From the NCBI GenBank assembly GCA_964528135.1, contig CAZGSE010000010.1:108-64107 (forward strand): a DNA stretch of 64,000 bases, read 5' to 3'. Source of the DNA: an uncultured Paraprevotella sp. (GTDB taxonomy: Bacteria > Bacteroidota > Bacteroidia > Bacteroidales > Bacteroidaceae). Numbering within the stretch: the first letter of the stretch is position 1; each line of letters starts with the position of its first letter. Position numbers and translations under genes: made by a program. This document shows, piece by piece, positions 43,123-50,430 of the stretch. Below the pieces are notes generated by a model. It had not been told where the DNA came from. It made no database searches and saw only the letters and a list, made by a program, of their open reading frames with translations.

Positions 43123-44511
43123 ATGTTCCTTTTATGGCTATTGGTCGGCTGCCTTGCGGGGGCGCTGTGTGTGTTCTTGTGGATGAAGGCCCGTTTGTCT
43201 TCCCTCCAGACGCTGTTGCAGGTCCGGACTGAAGAAGTGGAGAAACAACGTTCCGCGCATGCGGAAGAATTGGGGCGCCTGTCCCGCGAAGCGGAGGAGC
43301 GCAACGCACAATGGGAGAAAACCGGGGCAGACTTGCGCGAAAGGTGGGAGGAGCTGAATCGGGAGAACAAGGCACTGTCCGGCGAAAAACAGGCTGCGGA
43401 GAAGGAGCTGCAACTGTTGCGGGAGCAGGTGGAACGGGAGACGGAGGAGCGCGACCGCCGGTTCGGGCAACAGATGCAGCTGATGCAGGAGCAGCTGCAG
43501 AACGCCACCCGTGAGATGCTGGGGCGGCGCACGCAGGAGCTGTCGCAGCAGAACACGGTGCAGATGGCCGCCATCATAGACCCCCTGAAAGACACCATAC
43601 GGGAGATGCGCGTGGCCATGGACAACAGCCGCGACTCGCACAACAAAAACACGGCCTCGCTGGAGAAGGCCATAGAAGAGATGATGAAGCGTACGGTGGA
43701 AATAGGGACGGAGGCCGACAAGCTGGCCAATGCCCTGCGCAATGAGAACAAGGTGCAGGGCAACTGGGGGGAAATGATTCTGGACGAACTGCTCGCCGGC
43801 CAGGGGCTGAAAGAGGGCATACATTATGAAAAGCAGTCCGTTTTGCGCGACAGCGACGGGAAGGCCCTGCTGAACGAGGAGACCGGCAAGCGGATGATAC
43901 CGGACACCATCTTGCATTACCCGGATGGCAAGGACGCCATCATCGACTCAAAAGTGTCGCTGGCGGCCTTTGTGGACTATCAGAATGCCGATACGGAGCA
44001 GGCGAAAGGCGCGGCCCTGCAACGCCATGTGAAGAGCGTGCGCCAGCATGTGGCCGAGCTGGCGAAGAAGGACTACAGCGCCTATGTCAAGCCGCCGCGG
44101 CAGACGCTGAACTATGTGATGATGTTCGTGCCCAACGAGGGGGCGCTCCAGTTGGCCCTGGCCGAGGACCCCGTCCTGTGGCGGGAGGCTTTTGCCAGGG
44201 GGGTGTTCATCACGGGCGAGCAGAACCTCACGGCTGCGCTCCGCATCATCCAGATAGCCTGGACGCAGATGCAGCAGGCGCAGAACCAGGAGGCCATTTA
44301 CGACACGGCGCGCATGCTGCTGGACCGTGTGGCCGATTTCATCGCCCATTTCGAGGATGTGGGCAGGAAGCTGCAGGATGCCTCCTTGTGCTACACCAAG
44401 GCTGCCGACAAGCTCAGGGACGGCAGGCTGAGCGTGGTGGGCGCGGCCAACAAACTTATCCGGCTGGGGGCCAAGACCAGCGGCAAGAAAGCCATTCCGG
44501 ATGAAAAATGA
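43123..44511 (+). CDS. rmuC: DNA recombination protein RmuC
   Basis: N-terminal TM and coiled coil; QGNWGEMIL, PD..IIDSK, MFVPNE. Confidence 0.93.
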   Translation: MFLLWLLVGCLAGALCVFLWMKARLSSLQTLLQVRTEEVEKQRSAHAEELGRLSREAEERNAQWEKTGADLRERWEELNRENKALSGEKQAAEKELQLLREQVERETEERDRRFGQQMQLMQEQLQNATREMLGRRTQELSQQNTVQMAAIIDPLKDTIREMRVAMDNSRDSHNKNTASLEKAIEEMMKRTVEIGTEADKLANALRNENKVQGNWGEMILDELLAGQGLKEGIHYEKQSVLRDSDGKALLNEETGKRMIPDTILHYPDGKDAIIDSKVSLAAFVDYQNADTEQAKGAALQRHVKSVRQHVAELAKKDYSAYVKPPRQTLNYVMMFVPNEGALQLALAEDPVLWREAFARGVFITGEQNLTAALRIIQIAWTQMQQAQNQEAIYDTARMLLDRVADFIAHFEDVGRKLQDASLCYTKAADKLRDGRLSVVGAANKLIRLGAKTSGKKAIPDEK

Positions 44512-44798
44512 GGGCGGGGCAGGGTTTCCCCTTGCCCGCTTGCGCCGCGGGGCTGCCAAAATGTCGTGCCACCGGCAGGATTGGCAGACCTTCCGGCCGT
44601 GGAAATGAAAAATGGTTTGCGATTGTTTAAATATGCCGGCTGATGTATTAAAGAAGCTTTCCGAAGTTTAAACCTGTCGGCTCACGGATGCCCCGGTATG
44701 CACTTTGTTTGTTATATGGGTGAACGGCGCAACCGAAAGGAAGCCCGTCCGGGAGTTAATAAATTCAATGTAGGACTTTTAAAATAGGAGATTAGATT

Positions 44799-45233
44799 AT
44801 GTCAGCTATTAGAAGGTACAACGGTCAGAATTGGTTACCCAGTTTGTTCAACGATTTCTTTGACAACGACTGGATGATGAAAGCAAATTCCACGGCTCCG
44901 GCCATCAATGTGATAGAGAGCGAAAAGGATTACAAGATTGAGGTTGCGGCCGCAGGCTTGAAGAAGGAGGACTTCTCCATCCATTTGGGTGAAGACGGTG
45001 AGTTGTTCATCTGCATGGAGAAGAAGACGGACAACAAGGACGAGGACAAGAACAAGAAATACCTGCGTCGCGAGTTCTCGTATGCCAAGTTCCAGCAGTC
45101 GCTGATTCTGCCGGAGGATGTGGACAAAGAGAAGATTTCCGCCAGCGTGAGCGACGGCGTGTTGACCATCGATTTGCCGAAGCGTGCCCCGGAAGAGAAA
45201 ACCAAGGTGAACCGTATGATTGAAATCAAGTAA
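44799..45233 (+). CDS. Small heat shock protein (Hsp20)
   Basis: PAINVIE..YKIEVAAAG, RREFSY..F..LPEDVD..I.A...DGVL.I.LPK. Confidence 0.95.
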   Translation: MSAIRRYNGQNWLPSLFNDFFDNDWMMKANSTAPAINVIESEKDYKIEVAAAGLKKEDFSIHLGEDGELFICMEKKTDNKDEDKNKKYLRREFSYAKFQQSLILPEDVDKEKISASVSDGVLTIDLPKRAPEEKTKVNRMIEIK

Positions 45234-45270
45234 GAATGTGCCGGAGGGTTCCGGCCGTGGGACTAAAAGT

Positions 45271-45303
45271 ATCCCCCTGCAGCGGTTGGCGTCGCAGGGG
45301 GAT
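45271..45303. terminator. Bidirectional terminator between hsp20 and the OMP gene
   Basis: ATCCCCCTGC / GCAGGGGGAT stem flanked by A and T runs. Confidence 0.65.
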
Positions 45304-45326
45304 TTTCCGTCAGCAGGGCTGTTTTT

Positions 45327-46052
45327 TTAGAAATTGTATCCCAGGGTTACAGAGAACTTGCTTGTCTTTAGGTCTTTTGCTAATTCGTTGAAGTCGAGCG
45401 CGTAGCTGATGCCTACGTTGAAATTGTTAATGTCGAACATGGTGCCGATTTGCCAGCCGAACTGGCAGCGTTTCCATTTGTATTTGTTTCCTCCCATGTC
45501 GTCCTTATCGAAGTAGTTTATAGAGGTATCCTCATCTTCTTCATCCAAAATATCTTGTATGTCATCATCGCTGGAACTCAATTTACCTTTTCCCAACAGG
45601 TTTACCCTGAGGAAGAAACCCGTATAGGGCTTTATGGTCAGGTTTTCGTTGACCTTAACGCCATAAACGAAATTGAGGGGGATGGTTAGTCCCAAGAATG
45701 TGGAAGAGTAGTCTAAATCATCCACATCGAGCCAATCTTTGAATTTAAATCTCCCAAAATTGATGCCGGCTCCCGTTTCAAAGAATATGGGGAGCTTTGG
45801 GGCAATCTTGATCGATTGTACATAACCGAAGGAGAAACCGTTATAGTTCTTCCAAAGGTCATCGCCATAAGTGTCATCATCATAGCTCATAAATGTGCAG
45901 TCATACGAAAAGCGCAGCCCTTTCCAAGTTTCCACATCGGATGACGAGGAAGAGGACGAAGAACGCCCGCTCCCGCTGTTCATGAACTGCGCGAAAGACA
46001 TTGTGGAGCAACCCAACAACATCACGGCCAATAAATACTTGATTTTTTTCAT
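45327..46052 (-). CDS. Outer membrane beta-barrel protein (PorT-like), paralog 1
   Basis: Signal peptide MKKIKYLL; alternating aromatic strands; C terminus SVTLGYNF. Confidence 0.8.
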   Translation of the reverse strand: MKKIKYLLAVMLLGCSTMSFAQFMNSGSGRSSSSSSSSDVETWKGLRFSYDCTFMSYDDDTYGDDLWKNYNGFSFGYVQSIKIAPKLPIFFETGAGINFGRFKFKDWLDVDDLDYSSTFLGLTIPLNFVYGVKVNENLTIKPYTGFFLRVNLLGKGKLSSSDDDIQDILDEEDEDTSINYFDKDDMGGNKYKWKRCQFGWQIGTMFDINNFNVGISYALDFNELAKDLKTSKFSVTLGYNF

Positions 46053-46099
46053 AAAGTTGTGATTTTGGTTGATAATATATTTGTTGATAAACTCAGTCA

Positions 46100-47086
46100 T
46101 CAGTGGTTGAAGGTCATGCGCCAGATGTTGGCCTTGCCCTCCTTGTTGCCACGTTGCGACACGAAGTAGATGTATCGCCCGTCCTTGCTCCACACGGGGC
46201 TGAGGTCATCCGCCGCGTGGTAGGTGAGTTGGCTGAATCCCGTCCCGTCCATGCGCGACACGAACAGGTCCGTATTATAATAGGTGATGTTCCCCGTTTC
46301 AATCTTTGTGCTGCCCACAAACAGGAGCCATTGCCCGTCCGGCGAGATGACGGGCGAGGTGAAATTATGGTCGGGGTGCGACACGATGCACTCTTCCACT
46401 CCCGTGTCGTAGTTGATTTTCCATATCTCGCTGTTGCCGGACGAGTTGGGACGCACGCAGACAAATGCCTTCTCGCCTTTCACGGGACAGGGGTTGAGGC
46501 CTTGCGAATAATTGGCCAGGAAGTTGTTCTTCATGTCATAACTCCAGATGCCGGTGCCGTTGTTCTCCTGCCGTGCGAAGAAAATCAGGTTCATGTCGTC
46601 CGAGTAGATAGGCGAGTAATCTTGGTTGCCCATCGTGATTTGGCGGCATACGAACCCCTTATCCGCCGATGTCTGGAATATCTGGTTGGTCTTGCCGCGT
46701 GCTTCCGAGAACACAATCTGTTTCCCGTCGGGCGAATAGGAGAAGTCCAGCACGGCCGTGCGGTTGGTCTTCTGTATGGAAGAGCCTTGTTTGGCCAGGT
46801 CTTTGATGAAGATGTTTGTGGTGGTGTTGCGGAACGACAGGTAGGCTATCTGGCTCCCGTCTTTCGAAATGTCCAGTATCCGGTTGGAGAACCAGCCGAT
46901 GCCCCGCGCACTGCGTCTCACTTCGGGCATGCACACATAGTCCGTACTGAGTGAAATCTGTGTGAACTCTGTTCCCGACTCTTCCGGTACGGAAACAACC
47001 GAATAATCAACTTTTTGTGCCTGTGCGTTACCAGTGGACAGGCAGAGCAGCAATAGCGTGCCGCAGGACAACATAAGGCCTTTCAT
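46100..47086 (-). CDS. Secreted TolB-like beta-propeller (PD40 repeats)
   Basis: Repeated SKDG/SPDG/SPVWSKDG..IYFVS motifs; signal peptide. Confidence 0.85.
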   Translation of the reverse strand: MKGLMLSCGTLLLLCLSTGNAQAQKVDYSVVSVPEESGTEFTQISLSTDYVCMPEVRRSARGIGWFSNRILDISKDGSQIAYLSFRNTTTNIFIKDLAKQGSSIQKTNRTAVLDFSYSPDGKQIVFSEARGKTNQIFQTSADKGFVCRQITMGNQDYSPIYSDDMNLIFFARQENNGTGIWSYDMKNNFLANYSQGLNPCPVKGEKAFVCVRPNSSGNSEIWKINYDTGVEECIVSHPDHNFTSPVISPDGQWLLFVGSTKIETGNITYYNTDLFVSRMDGTGFSQLTYHAADDLSPVWSKDGRYIYFVSQRGNKEGKANIWRMTFNH

Positions 47087-47156
47087 TGGCGTAACTCCTG
47101 TTTTTGTTTGTTCTTTATGATGAAAACTTTTTCAGCCGCAGCCTTTGCCTTGTAAT

Positions 47157-47178
47157 GTTTATCTCTTCATAAGAGAGC
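47157..47178 (+). repeat. Left arm of perfect 22-bp inverted repeat (GTTTATCTCTTCATAAGAGAGC)
   Basis: Exact reverse complement of 47337-47358, checked base by base. Confidence 0.95.
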
Positions 47179-47315
47179 AACTTATTGATGCAAAGCCCTG
47201 CAAATGAGAAAGAAAAAGAAACATTTGTTTCAAATTCCGGTAAACAATCCGTTGCAAATTCAGCAATCACGCGATTTTTTTTGCCTTTTTGCTTGGTCTT
47301 TTACAATCTTTTAGA

Positions 47316-47323
47316 TACATTTG
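47316..47323 (+). promoter_or_regulatory. -7 promoter element (TACATTTG) inside the IR-bounded segment
   Basis: The only TAnnTTTG match I found between the arms; 13 nt before the right arm. Confidence 0.7.
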
Positions 47324-47336
47324 CATCATTACAGTC

Positions 47337-47358
47337 GCTCTCTTATGAAGAGATAAAC
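47337..47358 (-). repeat. Right arm of perfect 22-bp inverted repeat (plus strand GCTCTCTTATGAAGAGATAAAC)
   Basis: Exact reverse complement of 47157-47178. Confidence 0.95.
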
Positions 47359-47446
47359 CGGAAGATGTCAAAGATGAACCGGAAAACTTTCCGGATGGAT
47401 TGGCAGGCGGTACGGTTAATACACATGGTAATATAAAACGTAAAAT

Positions 47447-47926
47447 ATGAAAAAAAGTAAGTATTTCATTCTGTCCGCTTGTCTGATGGCGGCAGGAGTG
47501 GGGCAGCTTAACGCCCAGCAGAAAACGGAGTACCGTGAGTCGCAGGCACGATTGGCAGAGCCGGTCATGGGGGTTTATATCAAACCGCTGATAGCCGAAC
47601 TGAAGATCGATGCGGCCAAGGGCAAAGTGAGCGACAAGTGGGAATTTTCCAACAAGGAAGTGAATGCCTTGGGCGGAGAGGTGCCCAACTTGAAAGCGCG
47701 TGCCCTGTTCAAGAGTGTGGAAAAGCACAATGCGGATGTCATCGTGGCCGCCTCTTTCGACATTGAATCCAAGGAAGACCAGAGCGGTTATTACGTCACG
47801 GTCATCGGCTATCCGGCTCAATATGTGAATTGGCGGACCGCCACGACGGAGGACAATGAGTGGATACGCAACGAGAAAATCACGCCCAACAAGTCGCAGG
47901 AGCAGACGCAGGCCATCTCGAAGTGA
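47447..47926 (+). CDS. Secreted hypothetical protein, possibly YbjQ/RcsF-like fold
   Basis: Signal peptide; ARALFKSVEKHNADVIV..VTVIGYPA pattern; fold call is inference. Confidence 0.65.
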   Translation: MKKSKYFILSACLMAAGVGQLNAQQKTEYRESQARLAEPVMGVYIKPLIAELKIDAAKGKVSDKWEFSNKEVNALGGEVPNLKARALFKSVEKHNADVIVAASFDIESKEDQSGYYVTVIGYPAQYVNWRTATTEDNEWIRNEKITPNKSQEQTQAISK

Positions 47927-48000
47927 TGCCGCCGGGTTGTTTCCGCGGTGGAAAGACAAGCATCTACTACTACTAACATTAATAAACCGATAAAAAGACA

Positions 48001-48648
48001 ATGAAGAAGATTTTTTCTTTCGTATGCGCTGCCGTGTTGGGATTGTCGGCGCAGGCGCAACTGGTGACTTCGCGCAGTATAACTAAGGTGGCGACACCGG
48101 TGGAAAACCGCACTACGTGGATGGTACGCGTGGGTGTGGGAACCAACAAGTTCGTGGGCGATGATTTCAAAGACTTCGGGACCAAGGCGGGTTATTGGCT
48201 CGGTGCCGAGTTTAACAAGACTTTAGGCAAACGCGGTGCCTACTGGGGTATGGATTTTGCATTGGCCAGCCGTGGATATAGCTATGAAGATGAATACGAA
48301 AAGATGAAGCTCGCGGCCCATAACATCCACTGGTCGCCTTTTATCTTTGGTTGGAAGATTGACGTGGCCGACTCCGACTTTTCCATCGACCCGCACATCG
48401 GCCTTTTTATGTCTTTAGATTACGCCGGTAAATATAAGTACGAAAGCAATAATAGAGAAGAGACTGTGAAGATCGGTGATGCTACAGACTATAATCGTTT
48501 TGATGTAGGCCTGAAGGTGGGTGTAGGCGTATGGTATAAAAAACGCTACAACCTGGATCTCACTTTCCAGCGTGGTTTCCTGGCTGATGACACGGACTAC
48601 GACGGGGGTACGAGCAATTTCATGGTGCGTTTGGGATACGCTTTCTGA
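48001..48648 (+). CDS. Outer membrane beta-barrel protein (PorT-like), paralog 2
   Basis: Signal peptide; YNRFDVGLKVGVG; C terminus VRLGYAF. Confidence 0.85.
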   Translation: MKKIFSFVCAAVLGLSAQAQLVTSRSITKVATPVENRTTWMVRVGVGTNKFVGDDFKDFGTKAGYWLGAEFNKTLGKRGAYWGMDFALASRGYSYEDEYEKMKLAAHNIHWSPFIFGWKIDVADSDFSIDPHIGLFMSLDYAGKYKYESNNREETVKIGDATDYNRFDVGLKVGVGVWYKKRYNLDLTFQRGFLADDTDYDGGTSNFMVRLGYAF

Positions 48649-48880
48649 TTTTTGCCGCGCCTGCGGAAGAGGATATGCGGGGTGTCCGTTTTGCGGATGC
48701 CCCGTTTCGTTGTGCCCGTATGTACGGGTGGCGGACGGCCGGACTTCGGGGCGGAACGCTGTCTTGGATGGGGTGATTTGTGTTTTTTTCATCTTCAATG
48801 TGCCTGCGATTGGAAATATTTGCCTATTTTTGTGGAAAAGGCCGGCGGTTGTCCGGCGATGTGTAACTTAAAGACATAGG

Positions 48881-49465
48881 ATGATGAAAAAGGTATTGTG
48901 CATGCTGGTGGGCATACTGTTTTCCGCCATGGGCGTCTTGCAGGCGCAGACCGAGGGCGGGCTGCTGGTCCTCCGCGGCGGGTTTGCCACAAATAATTTC
49001 AAGGGGAGGCATATACGGGCCGATATTTTGCCGAGTTATGACGTGTCGTTGGATTTCAACCGTTTCTTTTATAAGAAATGCTATTGGAATACGGGAGTGA
49101 TGTTTTCCACGCGCGGTTTCGACAGTGAGCATAGGGGAAAGCTCCGTGCGCATACGTTCGGCATTCCCCTCACGTTGGGACACTATCATAAGGTGACGGG
49201 CAATCTGGCCGTGGATATCCGTTTGGGCGGCTTTTTCACGGTAGATATGGCCGGCCAATATGAGGAAAACCACCACAAGAAAACCAAGATTCGCGACATC
49301 GAGGATTACAGGCGCTGCGATGGCGGCTTCGTGCTGGGCTTCGGCATCTGGTACAGGAAAATCAATCTGGACTATTCTTTCCGCCGCGGCTTCGGGCGGG
49401 TTTGGCATGACGACGGCCCGAAGAACTCAATCAACCACGTCGTTCGTCTGGGCTATGCTTTCTGA
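48881..49465 (+). CDS. Outer membrane beta-barrel protein (PorT-like), paralog 3
   Basis: Signal peptide; YRRCDGGFVLGFG; C terminus VRLGYAF; own -7 element at 48825-48832. Confidence 0.8.
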   Translation: MMKKVLCMLVGILFSAMGVLQAQTEGGLLVLRGGFATNNFKGRHIRADILPSYDVSLDFNRFFYKKCYWNTGVMFSTRGFDSEHRGKLRAHTFGIPLTLGHYHKVTGNLAVDIRLGGFFTVDMAGQYEENHHKKTKIRDIEDYRRCDGGFVLGFGIWYRKINLDYSFRRGFGRVWHDDGPKNSINHVVRLGYAF

Positions 49466-49551
49466 TATGGCCGGATGGGGTCGGCGCTTGGTGCCACGCC
49501 GTGTACCCCTTGCCGGTAACGCTTGTGTGACAAAACCGGGGAGAGAGAGGC

Positions 49552-50430
49552 ATGGATGAATTTGTCGTGGGGCTGGGAGAGGTGTTGTGGGATATGCTTC
49601 CCGAAGGAAAGAAACTGGGCGGCGCCCCGGCCAATTTCGCTTGGCATGTCTCGCGGTTCGGTTGGAAAAGCGTGGTGGCCAGTGCTGTGGGGCAGGACAG
49701 GCTGGGCGATGAGATACTGGACAGTTTCCGCGCCAGGGGATTGGCGGGACAGGTCAGCGTTGTGCCCTATTCCACGGGTACGGTACGGGTGGAGCTGGAT
49801 GCCGGCGGCGTGCCGCGTTACGACATAGCGGAGGGGGTGGCTTGGGACAATATCCCTTACACACCGGCTTTGGCAGAATTGGCCGGGCGCACCAAGGCAG
49901 TCTGTTTCGGGTCGCTGGCCCAACGCAGCGCGCAGTCGCGTGCCACGCTCCTGCGTTTTCTGGATGACATGCCCGGCGGAGACGGATGCTACAAGGTCTT
50001 TGACATCAACCTGCGCCAGCATTTCTATACCCGTGAGGTTGTACATACTTCCCTGCAGAAATGCAATGTATTGAAAGTTAATGACGAAGAACTGGCGGTG
50101 GTTGGCCGGATGTTCGGCCTGCCGGACGCGGGAGTGCAGGGACAGTGCCGCGCGCTGCTGTCGGCCTACGGGTTGAAAGCGCTGGTGCTCACTTGCGGTG
50201 TATCCGGGAGCTATGTGTTCACCGCGGACAGGGTGTCGTTTATGGAAACGCCGGGAGTGGAAGTGGCCGATACGGTCGGTGCCGGCGATGCGTTTACGGC
50301 GGCCTTTGTGTCGGGCATGCTCCGTGGCCTGCCGTTGGAAGAGGCGCACCGTCTGGCCGTGGACGTGTCGGCTTTTGTCTGCACGCAGAACGGGGCCATG
50401 CCCGTGTTGCCGTCCCGGTTGTTGCAGTGA
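49552..50430 (+). CDS. PfkB family carbohydrate kinase (fructokinase-like)
   Basis: GLGEVLWD, GGAPANFA, FDINLR, LKVNDEE, DTVGAGDAF. Confidence 0.93.
   Translation: MDEFVVGLGEVLWDMLPEGKKLGGAPANFAWHVSRFGWKSVVASAVGQDRLGDEILDSFRARGLAGQVSVVPYSTGTVRVELDAGGVPRYDIAEGVAWDNIPYTPALAELAGRTKAVCFGSLAQRSAQSRATLLRFLDDMPGGDGCYKVFDINLRQHFYTREVVHTSLQKCNVLKVNDEELAVVGRMFGLPDAGVQGQCRALLSAYGLKALVLTCGVSGSYVFTADRVSFMETPGVEVADTVGAGDAFTAAFVSGMLRGLPLEEAHRLAVDVSAFVCTQNGAMPVLPSRLLQ

Follow-up and report, generated by a model that had tools for sequence, protein, structure and literature searches.

When one promoter lies between two divergent envelope operons and is itself enclosed by a perfect inverted repeat, the question arises whether it can be turned round and, if so, whether the turn would exchange one operon for the other or only switch one of them on and off. 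The case considered here is the element at positions 47157–47358 of a 64,000-nucleotide (nt) stretch of DNA (the window), which lies on contig C10 of the genome of an uncultured Paraprevotella sp. (G000; 2.5 Mb, 54.7% GC, 104 contigs, 99.7% complete). Comparisons across this genome and the genus make it probable that the element is a functional invertible promoter of the Tsr type, and we infer from its relatives that it flips at this locus in this species. It represents a known kind of gut-bacterial phase variation and not a new mechanism, in a sequence class and a genus that are new to it. Hereafter, C numbers denote contigs of G000, other G numbers genomes of the genus, and L numbers independent contigs. 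The element consists of the following parts.

47157–47178: left arm, a putative recombination site, GTTTATCTCTTCATAAGAGAGC, composed as GTTTATCTCTT-CAT-AAGAGAGC, with two near-symmetrical half-sites round a non-palindromic central CAT.
47337–47358: right arm, the exact reverse complement of the left arm (central ATG).
47179–47336: putative invertible segment of 158 bp (202 bp with the arms).
47293–47323, plus strand: promoter module, with TTGG (47293–47296), a 19-nt spacer and the −7 box TACATTTG (47316–47323).
47192–47199, minus strand: mirror pseudo-box GGGCTTTG, without the TA of the −7 consensus and part of an extended repeat.

An earlier, sequence-only reading of the window had described this perfect 22-bp inverted repeat round 158 bp, the dyad TCTCTT-CAT-AAGAGA within each arm, a single −7 box facing right and its mirror image without the TA, and all of these are present as described. 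The repeat cannot be ascribed to chance, because it is perfect and was never reproduced in 100 dinucleotide-preserving shuffles of the window, none of which gave a 22-bp inverted repeat match even when up to three mismatches were allowed. A weaker repeat extends the arms to about 38 nt (47157–47194 against 47320–47358, 92% with one indel). With 22-bp arms and 158 bp between them, the element has the layout of short inverted repeats round an intergenic segment of about 150–300 bp. The consensus of Bacteroidetes promoters is −33 TTTG / −7 TAnnTTTGY (PMC8748976), and the segment contains an outward-pointing promoter of this type (−33 TTTG / −7 TAnnTTTG), whose TACATTTG box lies 13 nt inside the right arm and points to the right. 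Transcription is predicted to start near 47330 and to run through the right arm into the operon of a 159-amino-acid (aa) protein, while the mirror pseudo-box is probably not a promoter.

The window's arms read ATCTCTT-N3-AAGAGAG, and it is the N3 that is most telling about their function. Between loci the central trinucleotide falls into 18 classes while the half-sites TTATCTCTT / TTGCTCTCTT stay constant, and between partner arms it is reverse-complementary in 30 of 30 pairs from the genus and directly repeated in none. The arms therefore have the structure of a lox/FRT-like core site, namely two inverted half-sites and an asymmetric spacer that is matched between partners, and the arm centre appears to behave, as expected, like the asymmetric overlap region of a site-specific recombinase, which would set polarity and would have to match between partners. 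It might be argued instead that the arms are static palindromes, either operators for a dimeric looping or repressing protein or the product of an old inverted duplication of a leader. Each arm is indeed a dyad (TCTCTT-N3-AAGAGA) like many operators, and small palindromes lie outside both arms, but an operator model does not predict a central triplet that is free to vary and yet inverted-matched between partners, and we regard this explanation as scarcely credible.

The arms are not unique to the window. A search of the genome for further copies, which the sequence-only reading had proposed together with a search for invertases, recovered an arm family GTnTATCTCTT-NNN-AAGAGAGC with at least eight paired copies in G000. 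Besides the pair on C10, these are listed here with the genes that they face; paired arms are about 175–190 nt apart.

C1:82383–82584: a cassette identical to the window's.
C13:9297–9496: faces a hybrid two-component sensor.
C36:284–491: faces a GT11 fucosyltransferase.
C8:3303–3493: a further pair of arms.
C51:14385–14606: faces a large lipoprotein.
C84:41–274: adjoins a tyrosine recombinase homologue.
C7:67912–68110: arms of the ATCTCCT variant, facing a NusG/UpxY-like capsule leader gene.
C20, C39, C87 and C101: single arms at the very ends of the contigs.

In total, G000 contains 26 dyads, against five for the reversed control pattern. Across the genus, ATCTCTT-NNN-AAGAGA(G/T)(A/C) was found in 16 of 31 genomes, with up to 21 copies per genome, whereas the backwards control gave one match in total. 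An alignment of 13 cassettes from nine species, each placed with its −7 box in the same direction, showed conservation of the arms and of a single promoter module only. This module, TTTG-N19-(CAATCTTTTA..)TAnnTTTG, ends about 13 nt from one arm in every cassette, and the remainder of the segment (158 bp in the window) showed no conservation between species. The cassette can therefore be reduced to two recombination sites and one outward promoter. The window's arms are identical to the family consensus, and their CAT centre is shared with the cassettes on C13 and C7.

A family that is multi-copy, dispersed and bounded by terminal inverted repeats could also be a non-autonomous transposon similar to a miniature inverted-repeat transposable element (MITE), about 200 bp long, with 22-bp terminal repeats and an outward promoter, in which case different orientations would reflect independent insertions. 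The C13 cassette, 83% identical to the window's in unrelated flanks, is in keeping with such an origin. However, there is no target-site duplication at the window's element, where the left flank ends in GTAAT and the right flank begins with CGGAA, and a central triplet that varies between loci but is always matched within a pair is unexpected for a transposon family. This, together with the fixed position of the cassette and the in-place inversion described below, leads us to consider a mobile element highly improbable.

Evidence that members of the family invert comes from the assembly itself. Of the 26 dyad arms in G000, seven are no more than 60 nt from a contig end, against an expectation of 0.13 (P = 4.7e-11). 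The contigs that end at arms are C20, C39, C87, C98, C101, C36 and C51/C7. Contig overlaps in this assembly are 55 nt long, and the overlap between C51 and C7 starts exactly at the 17-nt core shared by the two arms of the cassette. A break of the k = 55 graph at this point can be explained by two orientations among the reads, while a 17-nt repeat alone cannot account for it. The inversion system thus looks active in G000, an indirect assessment that concerns family members other than the cassettes on C10 and C1. In addition, arms with the central triplets CCC, ACC and GAT were observed on C36:1–1523, C98, C101 and C87, round the GT11 fucosyltransferase gene and small genes whose products start with MGDSITYK and MDTLVKII. 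This looks like a multi-cassette locus, and the short contigs that start or end exactly at arms suggest active inversion or shuffling of a glycan-modification locus.

The operons on either side of the window's cassette are as follows.

46100–47086, minus strand: first gene of the left operon, a secreted TolB-like PD40 beta-propeller of 328 aa (PF07676, 3.5e-27; the TolB model is below cut-off).
45327–46052, minus strand: second gene of the left operon, OMP1, an outer-membrane beta-barrel protein (OMP) of the OMP_b-brl_2 family, 241 aa from the ATG at 46052 (PF13568, 3.7e-10).
47447–47926, plus strand: first gene of the right operon, a secreted 159-aa protein in no Pfam or NCBIfam family.
48001–48648, plus strand: second gene of the right operon, OMP2, an OMP_b-brl_2 beta-barrel of 215 aa, with a hairpin after the gene.
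48881–49465: OMP3, a third barrel, with its own TATTTTTG box at 48825.

The propeller gene starts (ATG at 47086) 70 nt past the left arm, and the 159-aa gene (ATG at 47447) 88 nt past the right arm. NCBIfam gave nothing above cut-off for the flanking proteins or for the recombinase considered later. OMP1 and OMP2 had been called paralogous modules; they do belong to the same Pfam family, but the term overstates a distant relationship of only 24% identity (E = 0.007).

If the promoter can be turned round, both states should be met with at orthologous loci. Orthologues of the 159-aa protein (50–76% identity) were found in five other species of the genus, and in all of them a family cassette lies 29–89 nt upstream of the gene.

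G000 (window): promoter faces the 159-aa gene; left neighbours propeller and OMP1, no −7 box in the leader.
G003: promoter faces away (left); left neighbours propeller and OMP, no −7 box in the leader.
G044: promoter faces away (left); left neighbour propeller, no −7 box in the leader.
G014: promoter faces the 159-aa gene; left neighbour a divergent OMP gene, no −7 box in the leader.
G023: promoter faces the 159-aa gene; left neighbour an OMP gene that has a separate, fixed box beyond the arm.
G009: promoter faces the 159-aa gene; left neighbour an OMP gene that has a separate, fixed box beyond the arm.

The full gene order of the window recurs in G003 and G044, with OMP and propeller genes leading left from the cassette and the 159-aa and OMP genes leading right, and their arms are within a few nt of the window's positions. 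In both, the promoter points left and the right leader is without a −7 box. The cassette thus keeps its place in six species, to within a few nt and with the same genes on either side, even though the interior has diverged to about 65%, which speaks against independent insertions of a transposon.

In the lineage of G009, a sister lineage, 14 metagenome contigs from one 90% protein cluster span the intergenic region, and 13 of them have the promoter directed toward the 159-aa gene. Contigs L085 (Logan SRR33263637) and L080 code for one and the same 159-aa protein (P0043), but the inter-arm segment of L085 matches that of L080 at 172 of 176 positions as the reverse complement and at only 112 of 176 in the forward direction. 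The two contigs remain collinear in their flanks (193/203 and 45/45), the exchange falls within the 17-nt core, and the arms are intact. This is an inversion in place with flanks and arms unchanged, as a MITE-like insertion would not leave it. Both orientations have therefore been seen in the sister lineage and between species; for the window's own locus, the one independent contig has the same orientation as the window. Neither the presence of both interior orientations at orthologous loci, nor the breaking of contigs at arms, nor the tyrosine recombinase genes that abut family members would be predicted by static palindromes. The old duplication of a leader or operator, which the sequence-only reading had offered as its alternative, is consequently rejected on the combined evidence of the family, the matched centres, the orientations and the assembly breaks, and the same evidence, with the flip in the sister lineage, supports the invertible promoter that it had favoured.

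Not every allele in the sister lineage retains two good arms. In L081–L084, L087 and L046 the right arm has decayed (AAGAGA to GGGAGA, GCTCTGTTATGGGGAGAG, or the centre deleted), and in all of these the promoter faces the gene. Such alleles look like naturally locked-ON variants and are consistent with a need for the arms in inversion. They also bring up the possibility that the window's element is itself a fossil, i.e., a locked switch that no longer inverts here and now serves as the fixed promoter of the 159-aa gene and OMP2, with the propeller operon either silent or on an unrecognised promoter. The decay in the sister lineage, which leaves the promoter gene-facing, is what such a course of events would look like. 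Several observations likewise weigh against a working switch at this locus. The C10 cassette and its paralogue on C1 were both assembled through, in one orientation; the sole independent contig of the same species that crosses the cassette (L038) has the window's orientation; and the species of G003 is uniform, in one orientation, in at least four assemblies among the matches listed. Switching may therefore be rare or strongly biased. Further points to be set on this side are that the −33 element is imperfect here (TTGG rather than the TTTG of most family members) and that either operon may have a non-canonical promoter. On the other hand, where decay is present it shows in the arms, and none is seen in the window's, which are perfect over 22 nt, conform to the family consensus and carry the CAT centre of the C13 cassette and of the recombinase-adjacent one on C7. 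Moreover, the assembly breaks at the arms of other cassettes make the machinery appear active in G000. We thus hold a locked switch to be unlikely, and the functional invertible promoter to be the better account of the locus.

The locus is present in SRR7039256–62 and ERZ25039390/91. Exact-protein look-ups for same-species contigs with the propeller, OMP1 and the C1 OMP gave no match, and a scan of metagenome contigs gave distant homologues only. Seven Logan contigs were retrieved by look-ups with the 159-aa protein and three variants from its cluster. They all end 68 nt ahead of the ATG of the 159-aa gene, and we discarded them as an inversion signal, as the stops are explained by the paralogy of C1 and C10 at k = 31: the stop at 47379 is exactly 30 nt before the first C1/C10 mismatch at 47409, as expected at this k. 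Contigs with P0064 and P0065 were also set aside, since they come from another organism, in which the promoter is fixed and arms are missing.

The paralogue in question, C1:81270–82753, is a segmental copy of window positions 45324–47529. It holds a paralogue of OMP1 (229 aa, 85% nucleotide identity) and a propeller gene reduced to an in-frame remnant of 103 aa, and its 202-bp cassette is aimed at the degraded start of a 159-aa gene, followed by an unrelated convergent gene. The C1 copy is in effect the OFF state of an ON/OFF switch for one OMP. Identical arms on C1 and C10 could also mediate large rearrangements.

Which enzyme would invert the cassette? No recombinase gene is present on C10, in agreement with the earlier statement that the window has none, and any action on the cassette would have to be in trans. 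The same reading had named both Mpi and Tsr recombinases as precedents, and here the two part ways. A search for serine recombinases (Resolvase, PF00239) detected none in G000, at 99.7% completeness, but was positive in 12 of 14 control genomes. This excludes an Mpi-type serine invertase, and with it membership of an Mpi-type regulon, whereas the tyrosine, Tsr-type route fits. G000 encodes several tyrosine recombinases, with homologues on C7, C29, C77 and C84. Those on C7 and C84 adjoin family cassettes and have the domains Arm-DNA-bind_5, SAM_5 and Phage_integrase (PF17293, PF13102 and PF00589 in the C7 protein). The one at C7:66672–67883 is a protein of 404 aa. The order over C7:66672–68884, i.e., the recombinase gene, a 200-bp cassette with ATCTCCT-CAT-AGGAGAT arms and the NusG/UpxY-like gene, is the canonical capsule-type arrangement, with the promoter now pointing back toward the recombinase. 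The genome thus has a tyrosine recombinase gene beside a cassette whose repeats are of the same class. Of the 31 genus genomes, 27 contain homologues, among them all 16 that have arms, and the remaining four are free of arms. The 404-aa protein is the best candidate for the enzyme that would flip the window's cassette, because its gene is immediately followed by a family cassette that also has CAT at the centre of its arms.

We propose that each arm would act as a recombination site whose polarity is given by the central CAT and that, the arms being inverted, recombination in the shared core would flip the 158-bp segment, with the recombinase acting in trans. In the assembled state, transcription from the promoter would cross the right arm and enter the operon of the 159-aa protein and OMP2; in the flipped state it would be expected to start near 47185 and to cross the left arm toward the propeller/OMP1 operon, the ATG of which lies 70 nt outside. 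The assembled junctions are CCTTGTAAT-GTTTATCTCTTCATAAGAGAGC-AACTTATTGATGC (left) and GCATCATTACAGTC-GCTCTCTTATGAAGAGATAAAC-CGGAAGATG (right), and those predicted for the inverted state are CCTTGTAAT-arm-GACTGTAATGATGC and GCATCAATAAGTT-arm-CGGAAGATG.

Whether such a flip would swap the two operons depends on what else could drive them. TAnnTTTG does not occur on the minus strand anywhere across 44500–49600, nor in either leader, and so the left operon has no canonical promoter in the assembled orientation, as had been noticed before. Because neither leader has a canonical promoter of its own, the switch would most likely be of the either/or type and not ON/OFF. The chances that both operons depend on the cassette promoter seem to us evenly balanced, and those of an either/or toggle between the divergent operons nearly so, perhaps a shade lower. 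A toggle is the most economical explanation because the divergent operons are without a canonical promoter and species with the same synteny are in opposite states. A more ambitious version would have a true two-way toggle in at least three species, with propeller plus OMP1 and 159-aa protein plus OMP2 mutually exclusive in each cell, and with the 18-class trinucleotide code preventing cross-recombination among dozens of cassettes; this is quite possible, if tipping slightly toward the doubtful. Literature searches for an inverton that toggles two divergent operons brought up no clear case. A comparable either/or logic for surface proteins is reportedly found in the sap system of Campylobacter fetus, studied by Dworkin and Blaser in the 1990s, with one promoter on an invertible segment between opposed genes. 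The sap segment is said to be kilobases long and to invert by RecA-dependent homologous recombination between gene 5′ ends, and so it is not a 200-bp tyrosine-recombinase cassette.

Among better-documented systems, the BT1927-type loci of B. thetaiotaomicron come close: they have 22-bp inverted repeats that are imperfect palindromes differing only in the central trinucleotide, and they combine tyrosine recombinases with lipoprotein/OmpA operons (PMC4611039; 10.1101/521070). The window's cassette resembles these S-layer/OmpA loci and the Tsr26/BF4087 system of B. fragilis in its promoter element of about 200–300 bp, in the several near-identical cassettes per genome and in the tyrosine recombinases. 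The controlled genes are also alike in kind, being a small secreted or lipoprotein gene and an outer-membrane beta-barrel, a likeness that stops short of demonstrated homology between the controlled proteins, the 159-aa protein having no Pfam or NCBIfam match. However, the arms are of a different sequence class, ATCTCTT-N3-AAGAGAT here and GTTAC-N7-GTAAC there (PMC4611039). Unlike the BT1927 loci, which are described as ON/OFF switches with the recombinase mostly directly upstream, the window's cassette has no recombinase adjacent to it, and a second operon diverges from its other arm. For action in trans, the precedent is BF2766/Tsr19 of B. fragilis, where one tyrosine recombinase inverts two promoters with shared repeats, a local one and a distant one, of which the latter controls a cluster for an outer-membrane protein and a lipoprotein (PMC4747536). 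A difference is that IVp-II was reported not to affect the divergent groES/EL operon upstream and is thus ON/OFF, whereas here the opposite gene has no canonical promoter of its own. Mpi, the serine invertase of B. fragilis, flips many dispersed capsule promoters (PMC4611039; PMC4747536), and it is similar as a trans-acting global invertase of dispersed surface-structure cassettes but dissimilar in that G000 lacks PF00239.

The locus adds a defined repeat class, ATCTCTT-N3-AAGAGAT, for a poorly studied genus. Phase-variable surface structures govern the interplay of gut Bacteroidales with phages, complement and the host, and if the cassette is a true toggle, one inversion would swap two outer-membrane modules rather than silence one. 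Such a compact design would be useful for an understanding of envelope heterogeneity and for synthetic two-state switches. The genus-wide set of arms, with its conserved half-sites and a central triplet that is free but partner-matched, also provides a natural data set on the diversification of recombination sites.

With regard to the origin of the cassette, in three species without it (G017, G016 and G005; L018, L021 and L020) the propeller gene is driven by a fixed promoter of the same build. This fixed promoter was observed to share part of the cassette module (TTTTATTTTTG..ACAATCTTTTACGTACTTTTGCA). The comparison suggests that a resident promoter was captured between arms to give the invertible cassette, or that the change went the other way.

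Small hairpins outside both arms, which had been pointed out before, do exist.

47121–47134: small palindrome TGAAAACTTTTTCA in the left leader, 22 nt outside the left arm, with a weak fold (−1.8 kcal/mol).
47379–47394: palindrome CCGGAAAACTTTCCGG in the right leader, 20 nt outside the right arm (−8.3 kcal/mol).

By eye they cannot be made out in the G003 orthologue, which was not searched for folds or motifs. A role as terminators or insulators was considered and rejected, given that they have no U-tract, that the left one is weak and that they are absent by eye from that orthologue. Next to the right arm, a degenerate 21-nt tandem copy of its outer half was observed (47344–47364, AGATAAACCGGAA; 47365–47385, AGATGAACCGGAA), which runs into the CCGGAAAACTTTCCGG palindrome, and in G044 (L048) the sequence CCGGAAAATTTTCGG, similar to that palindrome, abuts the left arm. 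The tandem copy and the palindromes might serve the Arm-DNA-bind_5 domain as accessory or arm-type binding sites, or they might be left over from an extra repeat. Rfam contained no known RNA family for the region, with only plant microRNA hairpin matches far below threshold.

Genus-wide, the spacings between arm centres were observed to fall into discrete classes (153–154, 174–178, 185–189, 198–199 and 209–210 nt), several of them separated by steps of about one helical turn, and synapsis may thus be subject to a phasing constraint. Beyond the operons themselves, an Hsp20 gene (window 44799–45233) adjoins the module, and in G023 and G009 hsp20 lies directly downstream of OMP2 on the opposite strand, indicating a neighbourhood that is conserved but rearranged.

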